Positions 15,141-53,638 of a DNA stretch of 64,000 nt are shown piece after piece; the stretch's first letter is position 1; every line of letters starts with the position of its first letter. The notes under the pieces are model-generated. The model saw only the letters and a program-made list of their open reading frames with translations. It had not been told where the DNA came from and ran no database searches. The translations under genes and the position numbers were made by a program. The DNA lies in the sequence record OR544956; one strand, written 5' to 3'. This DNA is from Escherichia phage vB_EcoM_EP57.

Positions 15141-17737
15141 TGAGTAAGTTTACATGGGATATTGAAGCAAACGGATTGTTGAATAATGACACTATTGATT
15201 ATTTAGCTAGTCCTTATCGTCTCAAAGACACATTTCAAATGCACTGTATTGTCTTAGAGAACCATGAAACAGGAGAAATAGTAGCTTTCCACGATGGCCC
15301 TAAATACATCTTTGATGGGCGTCCTTATGAAGAGTCAGATGGTAAATACACATATGTTCTTAAAGAGTATGTGGCGCAAGATTACACACATTTTCAACTA
15401 AAAGATTTCCCAGATTTTATTAATCATGAAGGTTATTTTAAAGATAAGCCTGAATATCTGGTTGAAATGGCTGTGGCTCACAACGGTATCAACTACGACT
15501 GGTTGGCTACAAAACTGTTTTATGGATTAGATTACAGTGTTAAATATAATACGTGGGGCAAAAATAAGGTAAAACTTATTGACTCCTTGATTTTGAGTAA
15601 AGTGTTAAACCCAGATCGAAAGATTGAGGGCAAATCAGGACATAGCTTGGCAGCACTTTCTCGAAAAGCAGGTGGTGATGTAAAAATAGATTTCCGTAAA
15701 GAGATTCCAGAAGAAGATCGATTTAAGACTTTTGCTGCGGATATGCTTTATTACTGTATCTATGACAACAAAGCCAATACGAGCGTATATAATTACCTTA
15801 TGGAAGAATGGGGTGATTATGATAAATGGGAAGGTCCATTTGAACTTGAACAACGTGTAGCAGACATTATTACACGTCAGGAACACCGTGGATTTGCTTT
15901 TAACATGAAACAAGCAGAAGAGAACCTTGCTTTTTTGGATGCAGAAATGGAGCGTCTTCGTTTACTCGTTGAGCCTATTTTGCCACCTAAACCAGCAACA
16001 AAAGGTTATCTTAAGGCTTTTATTCCACCTAAGTTGCAAATTAAAAAGAACTTAGAGCCAACTAACCATATGATCAATTTTGCTAAGAAACATGATGGTC
16101 ATTTGGAAGAGAGGGATGGCGATTGGTGGTTAGTTATGTTGGGGAAAGAGTGGAAACTGCCAGTTGCAGCAGATGAGCCTCTATGTGATCCTAACATCCC
16201 TGCAACATTGAACGATACAACCCATATTAAAAACTGGCTTGTAGGATTAGGTTGGGTACCGTCTGAATATAAAGATAAAGACTTGACGCTTAAATCTGGC
16301 ACCAAAATTAAAAAGAGCGAGGAAGAACTTCAGAAAGGTATTCGAGCTTACGTTGAGCAAACTCTATCTTCTAATTTTTGTCAGGATCGTTGTGATCATC
16401 TGGAGTGCACACCGGAAACCTTGGAAAGGAAGATTCAAGAGCGTATAGCAAAAGGTAAAGGTCGCGGTCTTAAAGTATTGACTAACCCGTGTTTTACCAA
16501 AGGTCAGGAAAAAGAAATTTGTCCTAACCTGCAAGCTTTGGGTGAGAAGTTTCCTTATGCTACACAGATTGTAGAATACTTAACGTATAAGCATCGTAGG
16601 AACTCTATTTTAGGTGGCGGTGCTGATTGGGAAGAAGATGAAGAAGATCAAGAATACGATAAAGGTTTCTTAGCCGCAGTAAGGGCGGATGGTCGTATTC
16701 CTACCCCAGCAGCTACATGTGATGCTGCAACCTCTCGTATGAAGCATAGGTCTGTAGCTAATATTCCTCGTGTCACATCTTTGTTTGGATGGGAGATGCG
16801 TAACTTGTTTGGTGTAGAGGTTCCTAAATACTTCCAGATTGGCTACGACTTCGACTCTTTGGAAGCAAAAATTGAATCACACTACTGTTGGCGGTACGAG
16901 CCGGAGCCACACGAATATTGTAACGCTCTGTTATTAGAGAAACCTAATGATGTTCACACAATGATGGCAAAACGTATCACTGAAACTATCGGACGTAAAT
17001 TTGAACGTAGTCCTGCTAAATCTGTTAAGTATGGTATTACCTATGGTGCACAAGCCGACAAGGTTGCTAAAACAATTGGTAGCGATAAGTTTACAGGTCA
17101 ATTGGTGTTCGATGCTTTCTGGGAAGCTGCATTCCCATTGGCGCGTCTTAAAGAACGTTTAAACGATTTCTGGGTTAAGACTGGTAAACAATATGTTTTG
17201 GGTATTGACGGTCGTAAGGTTCCTACTCGTTCTGCTCACGCGATTCTTAACTCTCTGTTCCAAAGCGGCGGGGTTATCTGTGCTAAACGTGCAATGGTTA
17301 TTTATGACGACATGATCGAAGAAGAAGGGCTAAGTGTTGACTTCTTTAAAGATGACTGGAAGAATAAAGATTTCGTGCAACAAATGATTGCATATCACGA
17401 TGAAGCCCAGCTTGAAGTTTCTCGTAACCTTGTAGAATTTAAATGGTTTTCACCTGAATCATTAGGTTGGAAGAAAGTAGACGATCCTGAAGAACAAAAG
17501 AAAATTGATAAAGAATGCCTTGCTAAAGTTGAAGAATGGAAGCATAATAAGGAAAAAGAGACGGGACAAATTTGGGCTAACATTCATGAATCTCCCAAAG
17601 GTGGATGGTTTACAGCCTATAGTCGGGCAGGTGAACTTGCTGCTTTAGCTGTTACTAAGGCTGGAGAATTTTACAATCTTAACGTTCAGCTTACTGCCGG
17701 ATATGATGTGGGTAACTCTTGGGCGTCCTGTCACTAG
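15140..17737 (+). CDS. DNA polymerase, family A (T7 gp5-like) with N-terminal 3'-5' exonuclease
   Basis: WDIEANGL exonuclease motif; C-terminus RSAHAILNSLFQSGG ... GNSWASCH resembles T7 gp5 (RSPHAALNTLLQSAG ... GPNWAICH); GTG start after aggagg. Confidence 0.85.
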   Translation: MSKFTWDIEANGLLNNDTIDYLASPYRLKDTFQMHCIVLENHETGEIVAFHDGPKYIFDGRPYEESDGKYTYVLKEYVAQDYTHFQLKDFPDFINHEGYFKDKPEYLVEMAVAHNGINYDWLATKLFYGLDYSVKYNTWGKNKVKLIDSLILSKVLNPDRKIEGKSGHSLAALSRKAGGDVKIDFRKEIPEEDRFKTFAADMLYYCIYDNKANTSVYNYLMEEWGDYDKWEGPFELEQRVADIITRQEHRGFAFNMKQAEENLAFLDAEMERLRLLVEPILPPKPATKGYLKAFIPPKLQIKKNLEPTNHMINFAKKHDGHLEERDGDWWLVMLGKEWKLPVAADEPLCDPNIPATLNDTTHIKNWLVGLGWVPSEYKDKDLTLKSGTKIKKSEEELQKGIRAYVEQTLSSNFCQDRCDHLECTPETLERKIQERIAKGKGRGLKVLTNPCFTKGQEKEICPNLQALGEKFPYATQIVEYLTYKHRRNSILGGGADWEEDEEDQEYDKGFLAAVRADGRIPTPAATCDAATSRMKHRSVANIPRVTSLFGWEMRNLFGVEVPKYFQIGYDFDSLEAKIESHYCWRYEPEPHEYCNALLLEKPNDVHTMMAKRITETIGRKFERSPAKSVKYGITYGAQADKVAKTIGSDKFTGQLVFDAFWEAAFPLARLKERLNDFWVKTGKQYVLGIDGRKVPTRSAHAILNSLFQSGGVICAKRAMVIYDDMIEEEGLSVDFFKDDWKNKDFVQQMIAYHDEAQLEVSRNLVEFKWFSPESLGWKKVDDPEEQKKIDKECLAKVEEWKHNKEKETGQIWANIHESPKGGWFTAYSRAGELAALAVTKAGEFYNLNVQLTAGYDVGNSWASCH

Positions 17738-17754
17738 TTAACATATTGTTTTAT

Positions 17755-17776
17755 AAGGGGCTTCTGCCCCTTTATA
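17755..17776 (+). terminator. Intrinsic terminator after the DNA polymerase gene
   Basis: ggggc-ttct-gcccc then tttata. Confidence 0.45.
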
Positions 17777-17785
17777 GGAGGAAAT

Positions 17786-17977
17786 ATGCATTACGATTTA
17801 GATTGTCTTGGTATGCCTTACCTACCAGATGAATTTGAAGGCGAAGAAGAACGTGAATGGGACGATGGGGATATCCGTTGTTGGTCTTGTGGTAAAGATA
17901 TGTCTTATGAACAACATATGCACAATGATGGTTTCTGTATACATTGTTATAATGAAATTGATCTGGAGGAAGATTAA
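17786..17977 (+). CDS. Small Cys-rich protein
   Basis: CWSCG ... CIHC. Confidence 0.35.
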   Translation: MHYDLDCLGMPYLPDEFEGEEEREWDDGDIRCWSCGKDMSYEQHMHNDGFCIHCYNEIDLEED

Positions 17978-18154
17978 TGGGAAATGGTATCATGATTTGC
18001 TATAAAATTGTGCGTATTGTCGGAGACGAAGTTACCACTCGGTATTTTATGATAGAGTCTCAAGCCGATGAGGTTTACAATGACTGGCTTGAAAAAGGTG
18101 GATACGATTTTGTATCTAAAGAAACTTTCCGTTTAGAAGTATAAGGAGAAAACA

Positions 18155-18373
18155 ATGCGTAAACTAGTGAGCTTTAATGTTTCAATTCTTATTGATGAAC
18201 AAAATGAAGATGTTATTAAAGGTCTTGCAAATAAGATTGCAGGTGGAATGACGGAAGCTGAAGTGTGGGAAGAATGTGCTCGACTTTATGAGGAAGGTGT
18301 TATTGAGGTCTTGGGAGATGAGATTAATATGGACGATATTGTTAAAGTAACTGTGGAGCGTATCAATGACTAA
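18155..18373 (+). CDS. Hypothetical small acidic protein
   Basis: ORF track; aaggagaaaacaATG. Confidence 0.3.
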   Translation: MRKLVSFNVSILIDEQNEDVIKGLANKIAGGMTEAEVWEECARLYEEGVIEVLGDEINMDDIVKVTVERIND

Positions 18374-18593
18374 ATCAAAACAAATCAATATTGCCAAAGA
18401 AATTCTTACCGTATTAAAGATCGCTGATCCTAATTCTGTCTTGGCTGGCGGTGCTGTTCGTGATTGGCGTATTCTTGATATTGCTGGACGTGATCTGGAT
18501 TTTTACACATCTCTTCCTGCACATCGGAAGGTGTTACTGGTCTTAAACACGTTTTTGAGTTTGAACGTGATGGTCAGCTTTGCAACCTTATGA
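18366..18593 (+). CDS. Pol-beta-superfamily nucleotidyltransferase (CCA-adding-like head), N-terminal segment; continues in the -1 frame
   Basis: VLAGGAVRDWRILDIAGRDLDFYT (GGxVRD plus DxD). Confidence 0.45.
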   Translation: MTKSKQINIAKEILTVLKIADPNSVLAGGAVRDWRILDIAGRDLDFYTSLPAHRKVLLVLNTFLSLNVMVSFATL

Positions 18594-18868
18594 TTATGGA
18601 ACCAAGCGTAATGACAACCTTTCTAAATGAGTTTGATCTGTCCATCTGTCAAGCTGCATTTGATGGGAAGGATTGTTATTATTCTAAAGATTTTGAAACA
18701 ACCTTGGAAACAGGGATCTGCTTCTTGCACAAAGATGTTAGAGAAGATGCCAAACACGTTATTAAAATTGCTACACGTTTCCCATATCTTCGTTTTGTGA
18801 AAGAGGTTAAGGTTCCACGTCCACCTCAAGTAGATACCAGATTGGAAGAAGATGATATTCCTTGGTAA
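18590..18868 (+). CDS. C-terminal segment of the nucleotidyltransferase (frame -1 relative to 18366..18593)
   Basis: This frame is open upstream of its first Met and reads ...EGVTGLKHVFEFERDGQLCNLMIMEPSV... Confidence 0.4.
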   Translation: MIMEPSVMTTFLNEFDLSICQAAFDGKDCYYSKDFETTLETGICFLHKDVREDAKHVIKIATRFPYLRFVKEVKVPRPPQVDTRLEEDDIPW

Positions 18869-18875
18869 TTAAAGC

Positions 18876-18905
18876 TTGACAATATTAAACATTTTATGAT
18901 AGGAT
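18876..18905 (+). promoter_or_regulatory. Candidate promoter (TTGACA-18-TAGGAT)
   Basis: -35 consensus at 18876-18881; -10 is degenerate. Confidence 0.35.
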
Positions 18906-18913
18906 AGCATTCA

Positions 18914-19306
18914 ATGACTGAACGTTCTAAGATAGCTGTTGAAACTGTTTATGGAAACTATACCAGTTTGACACTAGTTGAGAAAAATGTTGTAGGTCTT
19001 GACAACTCTTTTTATTTTCAAATTTTGGTTATTCAAGGTGGAAACAAGAAGCTAACTGCTCGTGTTGAAACATCTGAAATAATTGAAACCACTGTTACAA
19101 ACAAAGAATTCATTTCACTGCAAGATACAATCCGAAACGTTATAGACGAAGAAGGCAAAGCTGCCACAATTAAACTCGGAGGTTTCCCAGTGCAAATAGT
19201 TCATTTTCCTAATGGTGAAATTGGAGTTGGAATAGGTAAAGGTAAATACCTGTTAGAGCAAGATGATATGGAAAGACTCCGCTCTTTCTGTGCAAAATTA
19301 ATGTAA
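18914..19306 (+). CDS. Hypothetical protein
   Basis: ORF track. Confidence 0.4.
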   Translation: MTERSKIAVETVYGNYTSLTLVEKNVVGLDNSFYFQILVIQGGNKKLTARVETSEIIETTVTNKEFISLQDTIRNVIDEEGKAATIKLGGFPVQIVHFPNGEIGVGIGKGKYLLEQDDMERLRSFCAKLM

Positions 19307-19322
19307 TGTAGAGGAGATAATA

Positions 19323-20210
19323 ATGTCCGTAATTAATACTGAAACTGATCGTAAAGGCAAAACCGTAACTTATGCAACTGGTATCGTAGACTACGTTAAA
19401 CTGGATAAATTCGCTGAACCTAAAACTTTCCATTGGGAAGGAAAAACGATTGTTTCAACTCACCGAGCTTCTCTTGTTCTGAAAGAGAAAGGTGCTAAAC
19501 CAGATGAGAAAGGTGTTTGGATTTCTCTTGGTGACATTGAACTGAAAGAAGGTTATGAAAACCTGCAAGTCAAAGAAGGTGATAACTGGATCACTATTGA
19601 AAAAGGTGTAGAAGTAAGTATTGATATTGATCGCGTTGATAATAAAGGCGGTAAAACTTACTACAATACTAAAAAATCTCGTATTACAGTATTGTCTACC
19701 GAGGGTGTTCAGAAGTCTAACAAATCTTCTGGCAATAAGGGGTCCAACGATGCGGCTCCTAAACAATCCTATAAAAAACGTGATACTGTAGGTCTGGAAA
19801 CTGGTCACGCAGTAAATGGTGCACTGGAACTGATTCGTAATGGTGTTAAAGGCGATGCTTTCGATATTGCTGGGGTTGTTCAATCTGCAACTGTCACGCT
19901 GAAATCTGAAATTGCTGAATCTCGTGGCGTTGATATTAATGATTATGATCTTGGGGCATCTGTTGGTCACGCTATTCTCAATGCTTGTAAAGACCATACT
20001 ATTAAGACTGTCTCTGTAGAAGATCTGATTGATTCTGCTCGTAAAGTTCTGGCTCTGTCTGATAAAGTTGCTGCTGCCATTCGTGGTTCAGCAGAACAGC
20101 CTAAGAAAGAAGAGAAGAAAGAAGTTAAGAAACCTGAACCACAACCAGAACCAACTCCAAGTAATCAAGAAGAACCTCCAATGGACTTCGACGATGATAT
20201 TCCATTCTGA
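19323..20210 (+). CDS. Single-stranded-DNA-binding-like protein with an E. coli SSB-type C-terminal tip
   Basis: C-terminus EEPPMDFDDDIPF is essentially the E. coli SSB interaction tail (MDFDDDIPF), preceded by a Pro/Glu-rich linker. Confidence 0.5.
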   Translation: MSVINTETDRKGKTVTYATGIVDYVKLDKFAEPKTFHWEGKTIVSTHRASLVLKEKGAKPDEKGVWISLGDIELKEGYENLQVKEGDNWITIEKGVEVSIDIDRVDNKGGKTYYNTKKSRITVLSTEGVQKSNKSSGNKGSNDAAPKQSYKKRDTVGLETGHAVNGALELIRNGVKGDAFDIAGVVQSATVTLKSEIAESRGVDINDYDLGASVGHAILNACKDHTIKTVSVEDLIDSARKVLALSDKVAAAIRGSAEQPKKEEKKEVKKPEPQPEPTPSNQEEPPMDFDDDIPF

Positions 20211-20220
20211 TCTTATTGAT

Positions 20221-21849
20221 TTATAAAGAGTTTTTATAAAAGAAAAGATACTCAACAACCATACCAGGTAAGCTTGCTGCCCCTGTTGGCGTTATTTCTG
20301 CTACCATTGTTTGTGTTGTTCCTACATCCATCGCAGATAAGCTAGGAGTGTAAACGCTCAATGTTGAAGCATATCCTCCAGAGGTATCTGATAAAGTTGT
20401 TCCTTCAGCGTTTAAGGCTGTCATACCTGCATCAAAACCACCTTCTGCATGGAAAGTCATTAAACCAGTAGATGATATTGTCATGTTTGCAGGGGCAGAA
20501 GAAGTGTATTTAATATTGAAAAGTTTACCTCCTTCTGGGCTAACAGAATGTGTCAACTGTTTAGTTCCACCTACAATACAAATTCCTAAAGAATCTGTAG
20601 TTAAGCCAGTTGCCAGAATATCACCCGTAATCACGGAGCTTGCTATTGGTGTGAATTTATTATAGTTTAGACCGCTATTGAACAGATACGAGGCTTTCCC
20701 ATCTTTCCAAATACCGGAATAATACATATCTCCATTATAAACGAAAAAGGTTCCTTGATAACCTAATTGGTTAGTAACATCCATATTCAGCGTATGAACG
20801 CTTGTGAGCTTGTTTATATCCCAAGAACCCACTCCTTCAGGTTTAACTGGTTTTCCCACTTGGAGTGGATCTCCGCTCGCAGAATCATACCCCAAACCTA
20901 AGTTTGCAGTGTAGTTCTTACCAATAGCCCACAAGGAATTATTGATCCCAACGAAAAAAGAGTGGCGGCTTGGTGGAAACTTCCATGTTGAGAAACCTGC
21001 TGCAAAGGTATCCAGTTTAGTGTAGGTTGTTTCTGTATTAGACCTAACATATAAGTAGTTTACTGTACCCGAGCCACCGGAGGTATCTCCTACAACTATT
21101 GTCTGGGAAACTGTATTGATGTAATCTTTGACATACACTGTTTCAGTAGCGGATATCTTAGCATTGACAAAAGCTGTTGTTGTGTTATTATTACCTGCTA
21201 AACCTTTACTAGCTCCACAAACACGCAAGGTTCCCACATTGTTGACATAAGAGCATTGGTTGTAACCTGCATCAAAAGCAACTGCTGCACTTGTTATCTG
21301 ACGAGGAGTAGAAACTTCGTTAGTAGTACTTGCACCTAAACTACCTACTGTGTTTTGACCTGATCCATAAAGAACACCACTATTCATTAACCAGAGAGTG
21401 TTGTTATATCCTCCCTTAACCTCTTTAAGATTGGCTAAAGAGATAGTCCCTGTTATTACAGATGGAAAGCTGGTCCAAGTAGTTACACATGCGTCCGTAC
21501 CACCTGCCGCTATAGATCCTACCAATCCTGCTGTCAATCCTGAATATTGCCATCCCCCACTGTTAGTTTTAATAACAAAACAACGATCTGCGGTAAACAC
21601 ATCCGCTACTACAGTAGAAGCTAAGTGGAAATTATTGAATCGTGCACTACGAGTTCCATCTGCAATCTCACCAAAAAGGTTTGCGCCTTGAGTAAACAAT
21701 CTACCATCATTAAGCAAAATTGCTAAACTGCTATTAGAATTACCAGCATTATCTGGGTAATCTAAAGTGATTACTTTTTTAACAATACCTGCTGGCAGAG
21801 GAACGACACCAGTGCTGGTCATAATAGTAAATATTGGAATTGGAAACAT
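20221..21849 (-). CDS. Tail fiber or receptor-binding protein (Gly/Thr/Ser-rich, repetitive)
   Basis: 542 aa, last gene of the late module; repeated G-x-hydrophobic segments. Confidence 0.4.
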   Translation of the reverse strand: MFPIPIFTIMTSTGVVPLPAGIVKKVITLDYPDNAGNSNSSLAILLNDGRLFTQGANLFGEIADGTRSARFNNFHLASTVVADVFTADRCFVIKTNSGGWQYSGLTAGLVGSIAAGGTDACVTTWTSFPSVITGTISLANLKEVKGGYNNTLWLMNSGVLYGSGQNTVGSLGASTTNEVSTPRQITSAAVAFDAGYNQCSYVNNVGTLRVCGASKGLAGNNNTTTAFVNAKISATETVYVKDYINTVSQTIVVGDTSGGSGTVNYLYVRSNTETTYTKLDTFAAGFSTWKFPPSRHSFFVGINNSLWAIGKNYTANLGLGYDSASGDPLQVGKPVKPEGVGSWDINKLTSVHTLNMDVTNQLGYQGTFFVYNGDMYYSGIWKDGKASYLFNSGLNYNKFTPIASSVITGDILATGLTTDSLGICIVGGTKQLTHSVSPEGGKLFNIKYTSSAPANMTISSTGLMTFHAEGGFDAGMTALNAEGTTLSDTSGGYASTLSVYTPSLSAMDVGTTQTMVAEITPTGAASLPGMVVEYLFFYKNSL

Positions 21850-26959: not shown

Positions 26960-27589
26960 TTAATCTATTTGCTTGAGAAGCGTACACATGCGTCCTGTTT
27001 CATCCCCAGTAGATTCCATGTACAGGGAACCTAAACCACCAATACCATGAGGCGGTTTGGTAGCATAATAAGAACTAAAACCAAAAGCTGATCCTGCTTT
27101 TGCTCCAAGACGGTAGCTACTAATGATAGGGAAAACACTTAGCAACTGTTCTAAAGCTTGATCAGATTGAAGACACAGGTTGTAGAAAAACACATCAAAG
27201 GTTTTATTCAAACCTACGTAAGTATTAAGCGTTTCACGCTCTGTTCCTGTGAAACGGGCGAAGATATCAATTATGTCACCACGAGTCCCCGATGAGGCTA
27301 CGCGGTAAGCCCTGATTTTTAATATTGTTCTATACTCTTCATCATCAGAGCCATTACGTTCGATCCCCATTTCTTCTCCTAAGATATCTAGGTATTTGCC
27401 TGTGGCTGTGGAGATCAAGCGGTGTTTAGCAAGATAGATCATTGCCTGATCTATCTTTTGCTTTTCACTGGATACGATGTAGAGGAGCTTGACAATGTTA
27501 GGAGAAGATTTAAAATCTTCAATCAGAAGGTTTTTAACGTCTTCATTGATACTGGCCCAAGTTGTTACATGGTCAACACTCACTGCCAT
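26960..27589 (-). CDS. Hypothetical baseplate-associated protein
   Basis: ORF track; position. Confidence 0.35.
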   Translation of the reverse strand: MAVSVDHVTTWASINEDVKNLLIEDFKSSPNIVKLLYIVSSEKQKIDQAMIYLAKHRLISTATGKYLDILGEEMGIERNGSDDEEYRTILKIRAYRVASSGTRGDIIDIFARFTGTERETLNTYVGLNKTFDVFFYNLCLQSDQALEQLLSVFPIISSYRLGAKAGSAFGFSSYYATKPPHGIGGLGSLYMESTGDETGRMCTLLKQID

Positions 27590-27591
27590 TT

Positions 27592-27933
27592 TTACACTCC
27601 ATACTCGTAAGAAATGTTATCAAGGTCAAAAGAAGGGACAACATTATAAGCAGGAACTATATTATTCTCTGTATATTTACTGTCATCCTCAGTATTAAGT
27701 TTAACATAAACACGAAGAGAAGTCAAGCGTCCAAAAGCAAGTGCTGCATAAATAACCCCTTTGATTTGATCGTTCGTTACTGAAGAACCTAATTCAAAGT
27801 AAGCTTGCAGGTTTTGTAAAGCTTCTACGATGTTTTGTTTTTCTGTTCCACTTAAAGTTGTTCCGTTGACAGTTTGATAAACAAGTTTTACAGAATACAT
27901 AGCAGAAGCACCTTTCTTCAGCACTCCCTCCAT
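27592..27933 (-). CDS. C-terminal segment of the baseplate J-like protein (different frame from 27794..28969)
   Basis: Overlaps 27794..27933 with the upstream ORF, whose last ~40 residues look out-of-frame. Confidence 0.35.
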   Translation of the reverse strand: MEGVLKKGASAMYSVKLVYQTVNGTTLSGTEKQNIVEALQNLQAYFELGSSVTNDQIKGVIYAALAFGRLTSLRVYVKLNTEDDSKYTENNIVPAYNVVPSFDLDNISYEYGV

Positions 27934-28969
27934 AAACTATAGTCTGGAAAGTCATAGCTGGAGCATGTTCTTGATCATGTAACGTAGGGTTATCATAAAT
28001 CTTCACCTTAGTAACACCATCTGTAAGTAACAGAGCTTTCACAATAGCTGCTCGTGTCCCTGCGTTAGCTTCGTCAACGTTGTCATTGAAACGAGAGCGG
28101 AATTCTGCGTCTGTCTCAACATCTCGACCAGGGGAAAATGAATAGAAGTTACCACTATCAAGATAACCTGTAAAGGTAGAAGATATCCCTGTAATAGACT
28201 CCACACCAACAGGATTGTATCCTTTCTCTGCTGCAACTACCGGAATCTCACTCCACTTGGTTCCAACCGGAACACTAGCATAAAATTTAATAGGAGTTAC
28301 CAGTCCCACTGGAGTATCACTGGTTAAAGAAGTAAAACCAATTGATAAGTTACCTGAATCAGAAAATACAAGACTACGATCAGCTTCTGTTAAATTTGCC
28401 TTGATAAAAGTTTCAAGATCGGTTATAAATGTAGAAGAACCAGGTGCAAGTGTTTTACTGTTTAGTCCTCCATCGACCGCACTTTGTGCATAAAAAGTAA
28501 TATTTGGAACACCTGTAGCAGTTGCATTAGCACGAGAGATTTGATAAGCTGCAATCTTAGCATTCAACATGGTTGGTGTGCTAACATAATAGTTCATATC
28601 ACTATCAGAGTTGAAGTAAATATCCGTGCCTAACTCATAAGTCCAAGCTGCTTTGTTATTACTCTTAACATATGCATAACCTGTACTTGCTGCTGCCCCT
28701 GCTCGATAGAAACCGCGTTTAGAAAAAATTTCGTCAAGATAAATACCTTCTGCGCCATCTAGTGTTTGAGTATTATAAACACCTTGCATACCTTCCCACA
28801 ATGTGTAATCTGTGTATGCAATTATTCTAAACAGTTGTCCGATCACAGTATCTTCAGAAGTGGCTGCATCTGCACCAAATGTGTTTTTTACTGCTGTCAT
28901 ATAATTGTTTAGAACATCGTCAAAAGTCGGGATTACAAATCCCGCATCTGTTAAACCATATTCGTCCAT
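27794..28969 (-). CDS. Baseplate J-like (gp6/gpJ-like) wedge protein, frame-disrupted near its C-terminus
   Basis: N-terminus MDEYGLTDAGFVIPTFDDVLNNYMTAVKN... resembles Baseplate_J family; C-terminus ERCFCYVFCKTCLSNCQRNN looks like frame noise. Confidence 0.45.
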   Translation of the reverse strand: MDEYGLTDAGFVIPTFDDVLNNYMTAVKNTFGADAATSEDTVIGQLFRIIAYTDYTLWEGMQGVYNTQTLDGAEGIYLDEIFSKRGFYRAGAAASTGYAYVKSNNKAAWTYELGTDIYFNSDSDMNYYVSTPTMLNAKIAAYQISRANATATGVPNITFYAQSAVDGGLNSKTLAPGSSTFITDLETFIKANLTEADRSLVFSDSGNLSIGFTSLTSDTPVGLVTPIKFYASVPVGTKWSEIPVVAAEKGYNPVGVESITGISSTFTGYLDSGNFYSFSPGRDVETDAEFRSRFNDNVDEANAGTRAAIVKALLLTDGVTKVKIYDNPTLHDQEHAPAMTFQTIVYGGSAEERCFCYVFCKTCLSNCQRNNFKWNRKTKHRRSFTKPASLL

Positions 28970-29151
28970 TAGTCATCCTCTTTGGTAGATTGTGATCTGC
29001 CCCAACGTAAATCAATAAGATTTTTCATGAGGCGAGAAGGGGTTATCATGAAAACAAAAGCCCAACCCATCCATTCAGGAATTTCTTTTTCTATTCCTAA
29101 AAAGATAAACATGCCTGTCATAACAGACATGCCTACAGCGTTCCAGACCAT
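28969..29151 (-). CDS. Small two-TM membrane protein
   Basis: Two hydrophobic segments in 60 aa. Confidence 0.3.
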   Translation of the reverse strand: MVWNAVGMSVMTGMFIFLGIEKEIPEWMGWAFVFMITPSRLMKNLIDLRWGRSQSTKEDD

Positions 29152-29202
29152 TAACTTTTGATGTTTCGGGTAAATTAGTAATTGTAGTTGACATTTTTAC
29201 TC

Positions 29203-29517
29203 CTATATATAAAATTTTTGTGTTGTTACTAAATCTTCTCCAGATTTAGTGGCTAATGTAATTCCACTTATGGTGGCAATCTCAACATTTACCTGTTTAA
29301 GAGTGATATCCTGTAAATAAACGTTCAAAGGCACGTTACCCATATAGAAAACTTGGGATTGAGAATTAACTACCGTGATAGAATCGTGCATTATTTGAGG
29401 ATAGGCCCATATATATTGTGTAAGTCCGTCAAACTTATTGGCGTTCAACACTATGTTACCTATAATCATCTTCCAAAGATACGTGCGGTAGTTTGATTTA
29501 GGATCAAAGCCATACAA
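29203..29517 (-). CDS. C-terminal segment of the Calx-beta tail protein (-1 frame)
   Basis: Overlaps 29466..29517 with 29466..31283. Confidence 0.35.
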   Translation of the reverse strand: MYGFDPKSNYRTYLWKMIIGNIVLNANKFDGLTQYIWAYPQIMHDSITVVNSQSQVFYMGNVPLNVYLQDITLKQVNVEIATISGITLATKSGEDLVTTQKFYI

Positions 29518-31283
29518 AGGTGCAAGAGTAGCATCTGGAACAAAACCTGCATCTTACCTTCCAACAACCAGTCATAACACTCTGAACAGTAAAAATCAAA
29601 AGCTTCAGGAATGTAGTAATCAGACGGGAAGTTAACTTTCTCCATCAAACCGTTGCCGATAATTGATGGCAAGAACGGAAGCAATGTTACCTTGGCTCCT
29701 GGGTAAGTTGCTCTAGTATCTGTTGCAAACTTTGTAACTCTTAATCCTAGTTTACGAGACAAAAATGCATAGTATTCGTCAAACGGCGTTCCTGTTTTAT
29801 AATTATCTATTGTTCCTGCATCTTGTGCAAATAAACCTGTTTCTGTGTTGAATGCCAGTTTGGTAGTGTAATCATATATGCAAGGCATTTTACTTGCTGT
29901 ATTATACCACCACCAAGGCTCACCAATTTGAATGACAACTGGAATATTATTAGCTTGCGAAATAGATGCTATTTTATTAATAACATTTTGCAAATATTCC
30001 ATACCTTCGTCAATAGTTGGAGACAACACATAACTAGGAGGTTTATACCCTGTTGCTGCAAGAGCATCGTTCCAATCATGCTGGACCCATTCTACAGGAC
30101 AAACTGTGCTCATCAATTCAAAACTTAAAGAGTTCATTATTGTGTAGCCCTTCTCGTTTGCTATAGAATGGAAGCTGTTAAGCCAAGCTTCTGTAGCCGG
30201 ATTCAGGAAAACAGATTTATTTAAAGCCCAAGATGTTCCATTCCATGAGAACTCATAATAGTGAGACATTCCGTTATAATGGTTAATCATCCCACGATAA
30301 CCTAGTGCATATGTATTATAAATAACTCTCTCTGGAGTCAGGTTATACATATCATCATAAGATGTGCACATGCGAATATCATGTTCAGGCTGGACAAGGT
30401 TGCTGACTTTCATCATACTGTAACCAGAAGTAGGTTCAAGAAGAGTGAAAGTAAACCAAGCCTCTTGACTGGCAATAGGTACAATCTCTTCTATTTCTTC
30501 GTACCTTGCTGTAATCAAAGAGAAGAAAATATTATCTACAGCACTCATATCCAAAGGAATATCATTATTAGGGCCAGAAAAGATATTACCAAAATCTAAC
30601 TTGATTGTAGCTGTTTTACCATCTTCTGAAATATCTAAAGCGTAGAATCCTAAACTGACATAATGAACACTTTTATCCAGGAGAGTTACAGTCAAAGTCG
30701 GCACCAAAGGTTCTTCTTTAAAACCTGGCATGTTTTGACTAATTTCCATTTTAAACCAAAGTTTCTCTGAACTTAAATCTGTGTGGGGTAAATACCCAAC
30801 ACCTTTATGGTCATATTTGTCAACTGTGCTCCAGATAACCCCTGCCAAACCTGCTGTTGTTCTGTTTACAAATCTTGCAGTAAAAGAGTCTCCATGAGAT
30901 ACAATAGAACAACTTTCCGTTGCTTGAGAATCTATTGTCCAATACATAGGAGAGAACATTTTAACGTCTTTTGTAGTCCAAGTTATTGGAGTAGTATTTT
31001 CTTGGATAGTAGTTATAATACAATTGATGGTTGTTTCAACCATCATATTATTTTGACTAATCCCTGAAACTTGGAGGGAGAAGTTAAGATCTATTGAGTT
31101 CTTTGGTCGTTCAAATACTTCAACCACAATAGTAGCAGAATCAGCATCATCAGGGAACACAAGTGTTCCCGATTTTGCAATATAATCTCTACCAGCGACT
31201 GCTGTTCCGTCAACAGTCGTGTAGTTAAATGAACTCGCATTTACTCTCTTGTCTCGCGTGACAGTAAATATAGCTTGTTTCAT
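29466..31283 (-). CDS. Tail-associated protein with N-terminal Calx-beta domain and a probable glycoside-hydrolase-like domain
   Basis: TVDGTAVAGRDYIAKSGTLVFPDDADSATIVVEVFER matches the Calx-beta signature; C-terminal ~30 aa look out-of-frame. Confidence 0.5.
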   Translation of the reverse strand: MKQAIFTVTRDKRVNASSFNYTTVDGTAVAGRDYIAKSGTLVFPDDADSATIVVEVFERPKNSIDLNFSLQVSGISQNNMMVETTINCIITTIQENTTPITWTTKDVKMFSPMYWTIDSQATESCSIVSHGDSFTARFVNRTTAGLAGVIWSTVDKYDHKGVGYLPHTDLSSEKLWFKMEISQNMPGFKEEPLVPTLTVTLLDKSVHYVSLGFYALDISEDGKTATIKLDFGNIFSGPNNDIPLDMSAVDNIFFSLITARYEEIEEIVPIASQEAWFTFTLLEPTSGYSMMKVSNLVQPEHDIRMCTSYDDMYNLTPERVIYNTYALGYRGMINHYNGMSHYYEFSWNGTSWALNKSVFLNPATEAWLNSFHSIANEKGYTIMNSLSFELMSTVCPVEWVQHDWNDALAATGYKPPSYVLSPTIDEGMEYLQNVINKIASISQANNIPVVIQIGEPWWWYNTASKMPCIYDYTTKLAFNTETGLFAQDAGTIDNYKTGTPFDEYYAFLSRKLGLRVTKFATDTRATYPGAKVTLLPFLPSIIGNGLMEKVNFPSDYYIPEAFDFYCSECYDWLLEGKMQVLFQMLLLHLCMALILNQTTARIFGR

Positions 31284-31291
31284 TTTACCCC

Positions 31292-31885
31292 TTACTCAGT
31301 AACGTCCACACTAATGTTTGCCATTGTCAAAACAGTAAGTGCAGGAATATTGCTCGAATCCAAAACAGGTAATGCATTTTGGGGATTAAGTTTTTTGTAT
31401 AAGGCATACAACCCAAAACCACGTAACAACTCTCCAGCGTGGAAGCCAAAGAAAACTCCGTTATCACTGTCTGGTCTAGGGGCAGCACTCCAACAACCAT
31501 TCATAACGTGATTAGGACCAAGAACAATATAATTTTCCTGAATAAGTTCAAAACAGCGGTCTGCTACTATTTTAATGTTAGGAATTTCTGAATCATATCC
31601 AGCCATCCCCATTATAGCACATCCCGCCATAAAGAGCGCAGACATGTGACTTGTAAAGTCATCTACAGGCGCAGCCACTTCTCCGTTGGGATAAAATATT
31701 GTTGGTGTTCTTCCTTCGTTGTTATCTTGGAACCACTTCAGATAGTTGATCCAGTTTTTACAAACTGTTAAAAGTTTTTCAGGAACTTCTGCTCCTCGTC
31801 GCTTTAGTTCGTATACCGTATGACACGCACAGAAGAATGCTCGTGCTTCATAACCATCCCAAGCTTTATCGTTCCAATGATACAT
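31292..31885 (-). CDS. Tail fiber or depolymerase segment 4 of 4
   Basis: Overlaps the upstream ORF in the -1 frame. Confidence 0.35.
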   Translation of the reverse strand: MYHWNDKAWDGYEARAFFCACHTVYELKRRGAEVPEKLLTVCKNWINYLKWFQDNNEGRTPTIFYPNGEVAAPVDDFTSHMSALFMAGCAIMGMAGYDSEIPNIKIVADRCFELIQENYIVLGPNHVMNGCWSAAPRPDSDNGVFFGFHAGELLRGFGLYALYKKLNPQNALPVLDSSNIPALTVLTMANISVDVTE

Positions 31886-32340
31886 TGTGAACTCATTTTT
31901 GTTTCCATAACATAAGCTTGTGCCATTGGCCCAGGCATTACAGGGGCAAACTTATTATAAAACCACATTTGTGAATCATATAAAAAGTCTATACTGTTGT
32001 TCATACGAACCCAGTCAATATCTCTCCCTTTAAAACAATATAAGGATGGGTATTGATAACCTGGGTAAGGAATACCACGCCAACCGTCATATAATGCTGT
32101 GTTAGGATCACTAATATTGGAAAATGGAATGATTCCTGGAGTATAATTCAAACTATCAAGTTTGTAGTCCAGTATTGTACAATCTCCAAGTTTTGCTGTA
32201 TAAGGATTTTCAGATGAAACTGTAACCCTGAAATACATTGTGTAATCATCGCCAGCGGCTGAAGAATACAAAGATGGGATATCGTTAACGCAATAAAAGT
32301 CGATTGCCCCTGTCAAGCCATTTGCAGGTTCAGAATCCAA
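31804..32340 (-). CDS. Tail fiber or depolymerase segment 3 of 4
   Basis: Frame open upstream of its TTG start, reading ...TAVDQINIALDSEPANG. Confidence 0.35.
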   Translation of the reverse strand: MDSEPANGLTGAIDFYCVNDIPSLYSSAAGDDYTMYFRVTVSSENPYTAKLGDCTILDYKLDSLNYTPGIIPFSNISDPNTALYDGWRGIPYPGYQYPSLYCFKGRDIDWVRMNNSIDFLYDSQMWFYNKFAPVMPGPMAQAYVMETKMSSQCIIGTIKLGMVMKHEHSSVRVIRYTN

Positions 32341-32356
32341 TGCAATATTGATCTGA

Positions 32357-33406
32357 TCAACAGCAGTCAGGTTTATTGACGAAGGTTTTGCCTCGTTGCC
32401 AAGTACTTAATTTGAAATCGGCAGGACTTAAAGCTTTAGTAACCCATGCAGAATTTGTTTTTTCTAACATGGCCCACCATCTCCAACCTGCGGAATCCGT
32501 AATAGTGATGTTAAAATCATCTGCGTATGAACGATATGTAATAGATTTTAAATTGGCTGTTTTAGTTGGTGTTAACCAAAACCCAACAGTAAAACCACCA
32601 TCTGAATCCATATTAGCAGAAACTATCTGATCACTATTTGTCCCAGCAATACCAGTTGCATATTTATATTGTATCACAGTATTGCTTCCCCAGTCAACAA
32701 TAATTCTGGGTTCAGCAATAATATATACACCCCCTCCAGGAGGTTCAGTGCGCATAAAACTGGATAAAGGTATATCCATCTTAGTCATATTAGCTGCACC
32801 AAGAGGTAAGCCACAACGATATGTCACTGTGTCTGTTTCACTCTTAGTCTTGCTTAATTCTAACTCTGGACGGAAAAGAACACCTTCCCCTGCATCATCT
32901 ACACCTTGAAACTCAATACGCAGTTTTGAATTCTGATCCACTCTGAACCAAACTGCTTGTTGTTCTAGAGTTGTTTGTGCTGCAACATCTTGGCGAATTA
33001 CTGTGTATCCTAACTCGTCACGAGAATATTTAGGTATTGCTGTAGATGGGTATGAGTAATCATACGAGATACCATCTGTAAAAGGAATTATTGCTGTCGT
33101 AGATCTACGGAAGAATTTATCAAACATATCGATGTTTGAGTAGTCTTGACACAGCAATAAAGAAGATTGCCAGCAAAGCCAGTATTTTCTCTCTCCTGTG
33201 ATCTGATACATCAGGTAGTTTGCATCACACCACCACGTTTCAGCATCGGAAGCATTATCTTGATAACCTAACTCTACCGGAACGTTTACAGGACGGTTAT
33301 GCCACATCTCATTACGCTTAAGCAGATATCCACCGTGTTCTACAGGGTTGCATGTAGCGTAGTTGAATTTATAGTCACCGTTCACAGAAGCATTTTTAAG
33401 TTGCAC
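32357..33406 (-). CDS. Tail fiber or depolymerase segment 2 of 4
   Basis: Frame is open upstream into 33481..34107 (reads ...ADKAWFAFNGNLGWNSVNATVYAINPDG...). Confidence 0.4.
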   Translation of the reverse strand: MQLKNASVNGDYKFNYATCNPVEHGGYLLKRNEMWHNRPVNVPVELGYQDNASDAETWWCDANYLMYQITGERKYWLCWQSSLLLCQDYSNIDMFDKFFRRSTTAIIPFTDGISYDYSYPSTAIPKYSRDELGYTVIRQDVAAQTTLEQQAVWFRVDQNSKLRIEFQGVDDAGEGVLFRPELELSKTKSETDTVTYRCGLPLGAANMTKMDIPLSSFMRTEPPGGGVYIIAEPRIIVDWGSNTVIQYKYATGIAGTNSDQIVSANMDSDGGFTVGFWLTPTKTANLKSITYRSYADDFNITITDSAGWRWWAMLEKTNSAWVTKALSPADFKLSTWQRGKTFVNKPDCC

Positions 33407-33480
33407 TGTTCCATATTCTGCAAAGCTGTGACCTGTAGATAAAATGTTACCGTCCCAATCAACTTTACGTCCTAGACGAT

Positions 33481-34107
33481 CTATAATCCATTCAACGTCC
33501 CACTGATCTCCATATTCTTTCCAGTTGGTTGAACCGTCTGGGTTAATTGCATAAACTGTTGCGTTAACGGAGTTCCAACCAAGATTACCATTGAAAGCAA
33601 ACCAAGCTTTATCTGCGCACCTTTAGGAATAATAGTCCTTCCGTTAATCCAAGTCATCATGCTACCTTTGAACCCACCGTGCGTAGGATACCCATCATCT
33701 GTGAGAGGATAGTGTGCTAAACGTGGTTCTTTACCATTGATGATCCAGTTGGGACGATATTTAGCTGGAGGATCAGGAATAGGTTGGCCCCCGAAGAAGT
33801 GATCTATATAGGCTTGCCAATACTTCTCGGCAGATTCAAGATATTTTTTATCCCCTGTAGCCAAATATGCATAAGCAAAACCAGTGATAAGCACAGATTG
33901 ACCTTCGGTAGTAGCGTCACCGTTTGGTTGCCCTTCCTGCGCTGTCCAGTTAATAAAGTGTCTGTTGTTCGCCAATACGTTTTGTGGGTTGATAATGTAA
34001 TGCTGAACCGTAGGATCTATGGTAAGCCCAGTATTTCTTTCCAAAAACTGAACCAACCCTTCAATCAACTGAAACGTGTTGTCAATATTGTGCTTAACTC
34101 TTGACAT
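33481..34107 (-). CDS. Tail fiber or depolymerase segment 1 of 4 with a glycosidase-like (alpha/alpha-toroid-like) motif
   Basis: VLITGFAYAYLATGDKKYLESAEKYWQAYIDHF; C-terminal ~35 aa look out-of-frame. Confidence 0.4.
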   Translation of the reverse strand: MSRVKHNIDNTFQLIEGLVQFLERNTGLTIDPTVQHYIINPQNVLANNRHFINWTAQEGQPNGDATTEGQSVLITGFAYAYLATGDKKYLESAEKYWQAYIDHFFGGQPIPDPPAKYRPNWIINGKEPRLAHYPLTDDGYPTHGGFKGSMMTWINGRTIIPKGAQIKLGLLSMVILVGTPLTQQFMQLTQTVQPTGKNMEISGTLNGL

Positions 34108-34400
34108 TAAATAACTCCTGCTAAAACTAAGCTACCTGTCCAAGTTGCACCATTATCATAACTGATAAACTCAAAAGTGTCTGTTGCACCTTGACGATAA
34201 CTCAAAACTGGGGAACGACCAAAACTCCATTTTACAGAAGAAGGCCATACGACTTTATTTGCACCACTTCCTTGACGCAAAGCTAAAGTAAAGTTTAAAA
34301 CTGCATTTGTTGCTACTGGAATATTAGTAAAACTAATTGTGCACGTTGCAGAAGATAAAGTTGCAGAAAAATATTCTGCTGAACTAATATCTAATGCCAA
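34107..34400 (-). CDS. Small tail or baseplate protein
   Basis: ORF track. Confidence 0.3.
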   Translation of the reverse strand: MALDISSAEYFSATLSSATCTISFTNIPVATNAVLNFTLALRQGSGANKVVWPSSVKWSFGRSPVLSYRQGATDTFEFISYDNGATWTGSLVLAGVI

Positions 34401-34578
34401 GGCTGGTTACTGTTCCCCGTGCATTCAGACGGTTTCTAGTTACCCCTGCACCACTCAACAACACTTTCAAAGAAGTTTTCTTTGTTATTCCAGCCTGATC
34501 TGTTACAAAGAAATCTGTATCAGACACAGAGGTTGTTTGTGTAAGATCAGAAATTTTGATCGTAGTTAAATCTGCCAT
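34384..34578 (-). CDS. Small tail or baseplate protein
   Basis: ATG with ggag ribosome-binding site. Confidence 0.3.
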   Translation of the reverse strand: MADLTTIKISDLTQTTSVSDTDFFVTDQAGITKKTSLKVLLSGAGVTRNRLNARGTVTSLGIRY

Positions 34579-35204
34579 TACTCTTCTACTCCTGTCATAG
34601 CTGTTATACCGAAATTATTGTTTGTAGTTAATGCATCACCTTTTTCGTTAACCATGATTCTTTCCACTGCTGACTCTGTAGACCATTCATTCCACCAAGT
34701 AGAGTAGGTATCACGTGGCAAACCAACAAAGTTGATAAAGCGATAAAGTCTATTCGAATTCTCAACAATACTGTAAGCTTCACAAATGATCGCTGCATTG
34801 TCTTCACCAGCTTCAGGGTAAATAAACTCTTCAGAAGGTTGAGTATTGAATATAGATGTTACTGTATCTGCTCCTACTGTGACCATAACTGTCATTGAGT
34901 AATAACGTTGATCCATGTCATAAGCAGATTTATAACTGTTTATTGTATCTATGTAAACGTTTTTGGCAATCTCTGCTAAAAATATTCTGTCTACAATATC
35001 TTTCTTTCTAGCAACACCAATAATCTCTTGTAAGTAAGGAACACCGAAGTTAGTATTTAAAAACCACTCCCCACGATACGTGTTCAGAGTTATCCCAAGA
35101 GTTTGTGCTGCAATTTCTGTTCTGGTTGTAGTGAGGACCAAATCCCCATCATCCATGATGAGGTCGTTGTTTGGTCCAAGTTTTAAGTCAAAAGGGATTC
35201 CCAT
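34578..35204 (-). CDS. Baseplate wedge protein (gpW/gp25-like, putative)
   Basis: Position next to the spike; LKLGPNNDLIMDDGDLVLT motif. Confidence 0.35.
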   Translation of the reverse strand: MGIPFDLKLGPNNDLIMDDGDLVLTTTRTEIAAQTLGITLNTYRGEWFLNTNFGVPYLQEIIGVARKKDIVDRIFLAEIAKNVYIDTINSYKSAYDMDQRYYSMTVMVTVGADTVTSIFNTQPSEEFIYPEAGEDNAAIICEAYSIVENSNRLYRFINFVGLPRDTYSTWWNEWSTESAVERIMVNEKGDALTTNNNFGITAMTGVEE

Positions 35205-35205
35205 G

Positions 35206-35940
35206 TTAGGCTCCTGTTGGTTTTAAGGACTCGGCACTTGAGTTACCGCTCTGAATGTTACGAACCGTGTGCGTGTGAGTATGGAATCCGATGCCATTAC
35301 CATCTGTCATCAAACCGTTCTGGTCTATTTTAAGACCATTGATATCTGCCACGCCGCCTTTGAAAGTTAAATTACCACCTTTTAGATCCAAAGTCCCTGT
35401 GCCATCTGTAATAGTAATACCAGAGGTGGTAATATCTATTTTCATCCCTTGACTATTCCATATTGAAATATTACCTGTAGGGTCGAAAGAAGCGTACGTG
35501 TTTTTGTTATTAGAAATAACTACCTTTTCAGAATCTACAGCTTCTGTTGAATCTGTTCCTGTAGCTATTTTGGGAATAAAACAAATAGGGTATAATCCAC
35601 AAGGCTGCATAAAAGTGGATGATGAAGAGGTTTCTCCACTAGTTTGCAGTGCATTAGAAGGATCTCTTTCAGAAAATATAACAGTTCCTAAATCGCCAGC
35701 TTTAATAGGGAATGAGATTCTTCCTGTCCCACCACCATTAACCATAAAAGGAACATCTTCAAAAGTAGGGTAATCTATTTCATCTTCGCTAGATCGTGTG
35801 TTTTTAACAATAGATTCTAAGGTGACAGTCTTAGCACCATAATTAACGCCAGTCACACGGACTGGCAGGGCTGTATGGACTTCTGCTAATTGTTCTGTCA
35901 TTAAGCCACGCATTGCTGTGACAAAATTTAATGCATCCAT
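35206..35940 (-). CDS. Baseplate central spike protein (gpV/gp5-like)
   Basis: C-terminal tip with HTHTHT motif of the kind seen in metal-binding spike apexes. Confidence 0.5.
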   Translation of the reverse strand: MDALNFVTAMRGLMTEQLAEVHTALPVRVTGVNYGAKTVTLESIVKNTRSSEDEIDYPTFEDVPFMVNGGGTGRISFPIKAGDLGTVIFSERDPSNALQTSGETSSSSTFMQPCGLYPICFIPKIATGTDSTEAVDSEKVVISNNKNTYASFDPTGNISIWNSQGMKIDITTSGITITDGTGTLDLKGGNLTFKGGVADINGLKIDQNGLMTDGNGIGFHTHTHTVRNIQSGNSSAESLKPTGA

Positions 35941-53632: not shown

Positions 53633-53638
53633 ATTATG

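Follow-up and report, generated by a model that had tools for sequence, protein, structure and literature searches.

Baseplate and tail fibre module of the phage

The window, that is, the whole 64-kb stretch of DNA analysed here (64,000 nucleotides of Escherichia phage vB_EcoM_EP57, record OR544956), represents a Phapecoctavirus, a phAPEC8-like E. coli myovirus, with phages tuntematon and nieznany, ~99% identical to it, as the nearest relatives. The region between positions 27,592 and 34,107, flagged in a first-pass annotation, carries genes for a baseplate J-like wedge protein, a small membrane protein, a Calx-beta domain protein and a large tail protein, all on the minus strand (Table 1), and belongs to a baseplate/tail fibre module that displays 97%–99% nucleotide identity to phAPEC8-like genomes. 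The gene order is the same as in the corresponding module of Phapecoctavirus (phAPEC8, tuntematon, nieznany; Stephanstirmvirinae), namely, gpH-like fibre, baseplate protein, baseplate J-like wedge, membrane protein, tailspike slot, Calx-beta/NCTSP-like protein, 958-aa tail protein, 157-aa fibre, sheath-initiator-like protein, spike and hub. Co-expression of several fibres and tailspikes is a known trait of the subfamily Stephanstirmvirinae (PMC12695924, PMC11984140).

In the relatives, the J-like, Calx-beta, tail protein and fibre genes are invariant in length (1488, 2154, 2877 and 474 nt, respectively), whereas in the window private deletions break the frame of all four, truncate the membrane protein gene at the 5′ end and leave an empty tailspike slot. 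Instead of intact ORFs of 495, 717, 958 and 157 aa, the window contains 2, 2, 4 and 2 fragments. The first-pass annotation had correctly described the split of the baseplate J, Calx-beta and fibre genes into 2, 2 and 4 ORFs, and its assertion that the frame changes in both directions is borne out by the missing lengths, which are 2, 1, 1, 2 and 1 modulo 3.

Table 1. Coordinates of genes, gene remnants and deletion junctions in and next to the flagged region; a slash separates the two positions that flank a junction.
Feature	Position in the window	Strand	Remark
Baseplate J-like ORFs	27794..28969 (391 aa); 27592..27933 (113 aa)	−	single 495-aa ORF in relatives
Baseplate wedge (Baseplate J-like) gene, 3′ part	27592..27912	−	C-terminal ~107 codons, out of frame with 5′ part
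110-bp deletion junction, baseplate J-like gene	27912/27913		length mod 3 = 2
Baseplate J-like gene, 5′ part	27913..28969	−	352 codons
Small membrane protein gene, 3′ remnant	28969..29148	−	start codon and ~21 codons gone
Hole of 2,227 bp (versus tuntematon)	29146..29149 (junction)		hypervariable tailspike slot
Tailspike gene, 5′ remnant	29149..29196	−	48 nt; maps to tuntematon 74546-74593
Calx-beta ORFs	29466..31283 (605 aa); 29203..29517 (104 aa)	−	717 aa in relatives
Calx-beta/NCTSP_N/TIM-barrel_NCTSP gene, 3′ part	29203..29549	−	
73-bp deletion junction, Calx-beta/NCTSP-like gene	29549/29550		length mod 3 = 1
Calx-beta/NCTSP-like gene, 5′ part	29550..31283	−	
958-aa tail protein gene (phrog_2871)	31292..34107	−	four ORFs in the window
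Tail protein ORFs 1 and 2	33481..34107 (208 aa); 32357..33406 (349 aa)	−	
Tail protein ORFs 3 and 4	31804..32340 (178 aa); 31292..31885 (197 aa)	−	
Tail protein gene deletions	33614/33615; 32394/32395; 31908/31909		19, 17 and 25 bp, respectively
157-aa tail fibre gene (phrog_9017)	34107..34578	−	64 + 97 aa after 2-bp deletion at 34401/34402

The baseplate J-like gene, whose intact 495-aa homologue matches Pfam Baseplate_J and phrog_6, lacks exactly 110 bp compared with each tested relative that covers the site, with no microhomology at the junction. The 391-aa ORF is the 5′ part of the gene running on into an out-of-frame tail, and the 3′ part matches tuntematon 70654-70974 at 99.5%. Compared with tuntematon, the gene contains 13 synonymous and no nonsynonymous differences.

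In the Calx-beta/NCTSP-like gene, exactly 73 bp are missing at the junction relative to all relatives tested, and the 605-aa ORF is likewise the 5′ part extended into an out-of-frame tail. The remaining differences (7 synonymous, 2 nonsynonymous) include no stops in the ancestral frame. The intact 717-aa homologue contains the Pfam domains Calx-beta (E = 8e-11), NCTSP_N (6e-16) and TIM-barrel_NCTSP (4e-79), and also matches Gp64 of PDB entry 9lc0 (3.5e-30), in which the non-contractile tail sheath protein family is represented by chains I and M. A corresponding function of the NCTSP-like protein in Phapecoctavirus would be putative. In the window copy, 578 in-frame codons precede the 73-bp hole, at which the gene is truncated. 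The exact product of the truncated 605-aa ORF, or of a 512-aa fibre with a 486-bp deletion, is not on record according to exact look-ups.

The membrane protein is 80–87 aa long in the relatives, and its intact homologue matches phrog_1322. In the window, the 2,227-bp hole has taken away the 5′ end of its gene, and also a gene for a tail protein/adaptor, a pair of small ORFs and almost all of the tailspike gene. Measured against other relatives, the hole in this slot spans 2,050–2,955 bp, and a tailspike of 540–921 aa occupies the slot in every relative. The first-pass annotation had missed this hole as well as the 2-bp deletion in the 157-aa tail fibre gene, which lies just outside the flagged interval and shows the same phenomenon.

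In the 958-aa tail protein gene, 28 of the differences are synonymous and 2 nonsynonymous, and stops are absent. The full-length protein has no sequence match in Pfam, NCBIfam or PDB, and a protein search yielded 14 distant or partial homologues, none of them both close and full-length. Its N-terminal fragment produced hits to GH76 (17.5 bits versus a cut-off of 25.9), GH127 and GH88, all below the threshold and over about 50 residues. Among the domains proposed in the first-pass annotation, Baseplate_J and Calx-beta were confirmed by Pfam, but no significant glycoside hydrolase match backs the glycosidase-like one. A pattern search recovered the form with the 25-bp deletion from the window only, the same pattern having worked on the loci of relatives and in metagenome and genome collections. 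Neither the intact nor the deleted junction form was returned by two scans of IMG/VR, a collection without a close relative carrying those flanks.

Distribution of deletions along the window

The window is colinear with the genomes of 10 phages and with about 11 assemblies from metagenomes or the SRA; tuntematon (NC_052660.1; ~61 kb compared) served as the main reference for deletion calls. The window differs from tuntematon by 31 deletions of 2–4,044 bp and two insertions (3 bp and 1 bp), with no isolated 1-nt indels relative to the closest relative over 61 kb. In tuntematon, the blocks absent from the flagged region and the adjacent fibre gene lie at 70975-71084, 72319-74545, 74949-75021, 77381-77405, 77892-77908, 79129-79147 and 79935-79936. 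Comparisons with phAPEC8 and Ro121c4YLVW place the holes at the same window positions, blocks of exactly 110, 73, 25, 17, 19 and 2 bp are present at all 13 loci tested, and no phage collection record shares the holes. The best database relatives are 0.6%–1.4% diverged from the window and a closer intact parent genome was not found among them. The ten assemblies (ENA, Logan, NCBI) that encode an identical baseplate hub protein are 1.1%–2.3% diverged from the window, and all ten have an occupied tailspike slot as well as genes of 495, 717, 958 and 157 aa. The comparison with related phage genomes, proposed in the first-pass annotation as a check, has accordingly revealed intact genes with the missing blocks in place.

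The deletions also affect the genes for the primase/helicase (7 bp, at 13519/13520), the conserved virion structural protein gp151 (28 bp) and the DNA ligase, minor head and tail terminator region genes and the ribosome-binding site of the terminase gene, in the spacer between the Shine–Dalgarno sequence and the start codon. Of the 31 deletions, 20 have lengths not divisible by 3, in agreement with an absence of selection on the reading frame (random expectation 2/3, P = 0.85), and the positions are uniform/Poisson-like (KS P = 0.16, spacing CV 0.97). Six deletions fall within the flagged region, against 3.3 expected (binomial P = 0.10), so that the special density of frame changes claimed for this cluster is not significant; the tail fibre/baseplate block at 20.2–34.6 kb is mildly enriched (12 versus 7.3 expected, P = 0.04). 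Microhomology at the junctions is at chance level (mean 0.84 nt versus null 0.72 ± 0.18, P = 0.27), and slippage or microhomology-mediated deletion was rejected on this basis. Outside the holes, the differences across 25 genes comprise 187 synonymous and 18 nonsynonymous changes; the ancestral frames are free of stops, and 3′ of each break the ORF is still perfectly conserved in its ancestral frame.

The sizes of the ~26 small holes (2–281 bp) do not depart significantly from an exponential distribution (KS P = 0.21), and a log-uniform distribution fits the size spectrum about as well (KS P = 0.13). The number and mean of the small holes agree with a coverage of about 3.6x by reads of ~230 nt, but 31% of the events are ≤7 bp versus 11% expected under a simple zero-coverage model. 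A pure Lander–Waterman zero-coverage model, which reproduces the number and mean but predicts too few of these short events, was therefore rejected.

The five largest holes lie on the hypervariable modules of the genus, four or five in number (88% variable or unaligned sequence versus null 14%, P < 0.0002). Lost with them are the tail fibre tips, the region of tail fibre assembly and the gpH-like fibre, the contents of the tailspike slot and an accessory gene island with a gene for an HNH endonuclease. The small holes show a 2.3-fold enrichment at locally variable sites (P = 0.005), which is purely statistical, given that tight coincidence of the deletion edges with divergent patches was not seen by eye. 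Among natural relatives, the modules differ by replacement, each phage having 5.5–7.2 kb unshared with the other two; private sequence of the window amounts to a single base between positions 354 and 64000, and nothing replaces the lost modules.

Origin of the deletions

The deletions are private to the window, genome-wide, frame-blind, devoid of microhomology and located at variable sequence in otherwise pristine genes. Given their occurrence throughout the window and in essential genes, and their absence from about 20 relatives, they are most likely assembly holes rather than biology, and we assign a probability of roughly 80% to the reading that the broken frames reflect holes in the record and do not exist in a living phage. 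What the window contains is the conserved backbone of a genuine strain of Phapecoctavirus, with about 1% divergence from tuntematon and nieznany; some 31–32 segments of the genome would have been left out and the flanks joined without Ns. As the most likely step behind the holes, we infer a reconstruction guided by a reference or stitched from contigs at modest read depth, whereby positions with zero coverage or unmappable reads would have been dropped from the consensus rather than written as N; divergent modules would vanish as a result and random coverage gaps would turn into short frame-shifting deletions.

Collapse of coverage gaps (Lander–Waterman gaps) shares with the window the private, deletion-only differences, Poisson-like positions, roughly exponential sizes, indifference to reading frame, lack of microhomology, loss of divergent modules without retention of private sequence and high base quality elsewhere, and differs from it in that very short events (≤7 bp) are more numerous in the window than the simplest model predicts. 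Because of this excess and the comparable log-uniform fit, the holes may include some that arose by another non-biological process, or a few in-frame indels (6, 6, 6 and 12 bp) that are genuine to the strain. The high base-level quality of the record is not the first expectation for a low-depth reconstruction and counts against the artefact reading. The suggestion of sequence indels in the first-pass annotation was right in locating the error in the record but not in its kind, the lesions being block deletions rather than 1-nt or homopolymer indels.

Non-biological deletions could also have arisen by another route, such as degapping of a masked or trimmed multiple alignment, faulty gap closing or scaffolding, or deliberate or simulated deletion. 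Such an origin would agree with the size spectrum and its excess of short events, the clean-cut junctions with chance-level microhomology and the otherwise excellent base calls. We nevertheless consider it unlikely: random simulated deletions would not fall on all the hypervariable modules and would not be enriched at locally variable sites, whereas trimming of an alignment would strip ordinary SNP columns too, and no 1-nt gaps were found.

Less probable still is the possibility that the deletions are real and belong to a defective or decaying population (a laboratory stock, helper-dependent genomes or degraded environmental DNA), with the fibre genes being pseudogenes. Frame-disrupted fibre genes are known in laboratory phages, the stf frameshift of lambda PaPa being the classic case of laboratory loss of a phage host-range gene, and the split tail fibre ORFs, the mild excess of deletions in the tail fibre/baseplate block and substitutions that clearly stem from a real strain would all be in line with such decay. 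The likeness to lambda PaPa does not extend further, because the lesions in the window are genome-wide, multi-base and found in essential replication and virion genes rather than confined to dispensable ones, and no other sign of relaxed selection or any microhomology or repeat context accompanies them. Without intact primase/helicase, baseplate J, gp151 and ligase, the phage cannot replicate alone. The spectrum itself is unnatural, consisting of 31 multi-base deletions with neither nonsense nor 1-nt changes and no selection on frame; every variable module is absent without replacement, and the junctions are shared by none of the roughly 20 relatives or any database record. The decay of host-range genes in a laboratory-propagated phage, as envisaged in the first-pass annotation, is not supported by these window-wide, frame-blind lesions in genes whose other changes are almost all synonymous. 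A related reading, to which we give little credence, is that the record faithfully copies a real replication-incompetent Phapecoctavirus that lost every hypervariable module and sustained about 25 short deletions free of microhomology; such a defective genome might stem from a helper-dependent population or from a nuclease-and-rejoining activity on phage DNA.

Single-base sequencing errors, such as the homopolymer indels of 454, Ion Torrent or Nanopore data, would account for frame changes both ways but are very improbable in view of the lack of isolated 1-nt indels over 61 kb and the loss of 2–2,227-bp blocks outside homopolymers. Although phage tail genes do use programmed recoding, as in the frameshifts of tail assembly chaperones and the bypass in T4 gene 60, there is next to no chance that frameshifting or bypassing still yields full-length proteins here, considering that each protein is an uninterrupted ORF of invariant length in the relatives, that 6–37 codons are absent per site, so that the protein is not restorable, and that there is no conserved slippery site, the junctions being private to the window.

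Implications

The main value of recognizing the holes in the sequence record lies in quality control. Taken at face value, the record would lead to the annotation of over a dozen false pseudogenes, to a phage without a tailspike and to wrong inferences on host range and decay. Because the genome-wide, deletion-only pattern strips the variable modules, the record is unreliable for analyses of gene content or receptor-binding proteins. The underlying genes are ordinary, well-conserved baseplate and fibre genes of Phapecoctavirus.

Results

Judged against related genomes, the cluster of frame-disrupted fibre genes at 27592-34107 is most probably no real biological feature but one part of a defect of the record that is genome-wide and deletion-only. 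Among 50,697 phage records searched by megablast, 95 cover at least 80% of window positions 27000-35300. The top matches, Escherichia phages nieznany and tuntematon at 98.6% and phAPEC8 at 97.7%, are all members of Phapecoctavirus (Stephanstirmvirinae). The flagged genes are encoded by the minus strand and belong to the baseplate/tail-fibre block. In annotated relatives this block runs from the baseplate protein gene through a J-like baseplate wedge gene of 1488 nt, a small membrane-protein gene of 243-264 nt, the variable tailspike slot, a 2154-nt gene annotated as 'hypothetical' or 'non-contractile tail sheath', a 2877-nt tail-protein gene and a 474-nt tail-fibre gene to the genes for a sheath-initiator-like protein, spike and hub. 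The intact homologue of the J-like wedge matches Baseplate_J, and that of the 717-aa protein matches Calx-beta, NCTSP_N and TIM-barrel_NCTSP (Pfam) as well as PDB 9lc0. The third protein belongs to phrog_2871 'tail protein'; the only matches that bear on its description as a glycosidase-like fibre in the first-pass annotation are sub-threshold ones to GH76, GH127 and GH88 over ~50 residues of the N-terminal fragment, and the intact 958-aa homologue has no Pfam match. The genes themselves are unremarkable components of the Phapecoctavirus baseplate/tail-fibre module, in a group known for several co-expressed fibres and tailspikes (PMC12695924, PMC11984140). Homologues of ~590 aa to the central part of the tail protein (39-55% identity; protein-search matches P0003 and P0004) occur in Klebsiella pneumoniae and Serratia plymuthica sequences, where they are presumably prophage or tailocin genes. 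All flagged genes are intact in 'UNVERIFIED: Campylobacter phage B15' (MG065650.1), a Phapecoctavirus with 97.7% identity to the window; this phage probably infects E. coli, its host having been assigned in error.

The frame-disrupted layout was borne out by the ORF map, in which fragments stand where relatives have single ORFs (see table). The breaks, for which sequence indels were one of the readings offered earlier, are not of the single-base type: the alignments show missing blocks of 2-2,227 bp, and the translated fragments correspond residue by residue to the intact protein, except for the missing codons. In the locus-by-locus test, all 13 relatives' loci covering the sites carry exactly 110, 73, 25, 17, 19 and 2 extra bases there, and 2,050-2,955 extra bases in the tailspike slot. 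A pattern search for either state of the 25-bp site recovered the deleted form in the window only; all phage loci have the intact form, as do two metagenome contigs and one MAG. A further ten assemblies from ENA, Logan and NCBI, which encode the identical baseplate-hub protein, all contain the segments absent from the window and encode the 495-, 717-, 958- and 157-aa products plus a tailspike of 540-921 aa. In total, none of ~21 independent relatives (two duplicates removed) has any window junction. The tailspike slot, between the membrane-protein and NCTSP-like genes, is empty in the window, and every relative has a different tailspike there: phAPEC8 and several metagenome contigs have an endosialidase-type protein, SKA64 a G7C-like one and others beta-helix types.

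Frame-broken genes and missing blocks in the window relative to related phages (a/b, junction between window positions)
Gene or site	Window position	Missing (bp)	Window product	Intact product
J-like gene			391 + 113 aa	495 aa
Calx-beta/NCTSP-like gene			605 + 104 aa	717 aa
Tail-protein gene			208 + 349 + 178 + 197 aa	958 aa
Flagged region	27912/27913	110		
Tailspike slot	29146-29149	2,227		
Flagged region	29549/29550	73		
Flagged region	31908/31909	25		
Flagged region	32394/32395	17		
Flagged region	33614/33615	19		
Next gene	34401/34402	2	64 + 97 aa	157 aa
Primase/helicase (inside DnaB-like helicase domain)	13519/13520	7	506 aa	592 aa
Nucleotidyltransferase		91		
Three other fibre genes		1,092, 486, 4, 281		
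Lipoprotein/tail fibre assembly/gpH-like fibre block	26585/26586	1,247		
Tape measure gene		144		
Conserved virion structural protein gp151		28		
hyp153/minor-head pair		152 and 2		
Large terminase (AAGGAG Shine-Dalgarno to GTG start spacer)	52056/52057	6		
DNA ligase (end of hole)	57721/57722	4,044		
DNA ligase (further inside gene)	58121/58122	107		

Alignment of the whole window to tuntematon 41,000-113,000 yielded 31 deletions of 2 to 4,044 bp versus only two insertions, one of 3 bp (a GAG repeat unit) and one of 1 bp, with no isolated 1-nt indels. Comparisons with phAPEC8 and Ro121c4YLVW gave the same holes at the same window positions, plus one additional 66-bp hole at 63004. Deletion positions are compatible with uniform Poisson placement (KS P = 0.16; CV of spacing 0.97), and 6 fall in the flagged interval versus 3.3 expected (P = 0.10). 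Their lengths are not divisible by three in 20 of 31 cases, exactly the two-thirds expected without selection on reading frame, and junction microhomology (mean 0.84 nt) does not differ from random placement (0.72 +/- 0.18). Neither N nor any ambiguity code occurs in the window. Outside the flagged region, the 1,247-bp hole coincides with a module in which tuntematon and phAPEC8 differ; lost with it are the entire tail fibre assembly gene, the lipoprotein gene's 5' end and, from the gpH-like tail fibre gene, the 3' two-thirds. The 4,044-bp hole takes out 12 small genes, an HNH endonuclease gene and a phosphoesterase gene among them, and the initial 138 nt of the gene for DNA ligase. The 691-aa large terminase ORF is itself intact despite the upstream deletion. 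An array of 10 tRNA genes (53554-55515) is also intact; a 51-bp hole lies in its tRNA-Asn/tRNA-Ser spacer (54925/54926), where phAPEC8 has a tRNA-Tyr.

As a control, the three natural genomes (tuntematon, phAPEC8 and Ro121c4YLVW) were compared pairwise across the same span. Their differences are of three kinds: replaced modules, in which the sequences of the two sides are non-homologous; indels of 3 or 6 bp that keep the frame; and compensated indels, which lie in divergent or intergenic stretches. In none of the three is a coding region frame-broken by a pure deletion. Across 25 window genes, holes excluded, 187 synonymous versus 18 nonsynonymous differences separate the window from tuntematon (13 and 0 in the J gene, 7 and 2 in the NCTSP-like gene, 28 and 2 in the tail protein gene) and no stop codons occur in the ancestral frame, so that the sequence past each 'frameshift' is still a selected ORF.

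Each of the five largest holes (486, 1,092, 1,247, 2,227 and 4,044 bp) covers a segment that is non-homologous or highly diverged among natural Phapecoctavirus genomes; 88% of their bases are variable or unaligned between relatives, as opposed to 14% under the null (P < 0.0002). Small holes show a 2.3-fold excess of locally variable positions over their own neighbourhoods (P = 0.005). Each of the three natural genomes carries 5.5-7.2 kb without counterpart in the other two, whereas between 354 and 64000 the window has a single private base; where natural genomes have alternative modules, the window has nothing. Accordingly, the window represents the conserved backbone with all strain-specific modules gone, plus random short gaps. 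Its edge is naturally divergent: positions 1-353 have no megablast alignment to phAPEC8 or Ro121c4YLVW, and 413-611 align only with many compensating indels. The DNA polymerase I gene of Ro121c4YLVW (locus L007, ~17042-20275; window ~16888) has ~730 extra bp compared with the window, tuntematon and phAPEC8, which could be an intron or homing element.

Discussion

A phage with the window genome could not replicate or assemble, and its mutation spectrum does not resemble natural decay. The most economical explanation for the holes is a reconstruction artefact. As to the particular assembly step, we infer that segments with zero coverage or unmappable reads would have been omitted from a reference-guided consensus or stitched contigs, and their flanks then abutted without Ns. 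In number (26) and mean size (62.5 bp), the small holes match Lander-Waterman gaps at about 3.6x coverage by ~230-nt reads, and their sizes are compatible with an exponential (KS P = 0.21). Agreement is incomplete: 31% of events measure 7 bp or less versus 11% expected, and a log-uniform size spectrum fits about as well (P = 0.13). A different non-biological process is a less likely alternative. Some of the smallest events that keep the frame (6, 6, 6 and 12 bp) may be true strain indels.

A real defective genome, faithfully sequenced, is very improbable. Decay of host-range genes in a lab-propagated phage, the other reading offered initially, is not supported: essential genes are hit too, deletion lengths are blind to frame, selection is not relaxed, microhomology is lacking, the junctions are private and whole modules are missing. 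The alignments refute homopolymer-type sequencing error. Programmed frameshifting or bypassing is excluded, since each protein is a single ORF in relatives and coding sequence is missing from the window at every site. The value of the frame-break cluster is that of a quality flag on the record.
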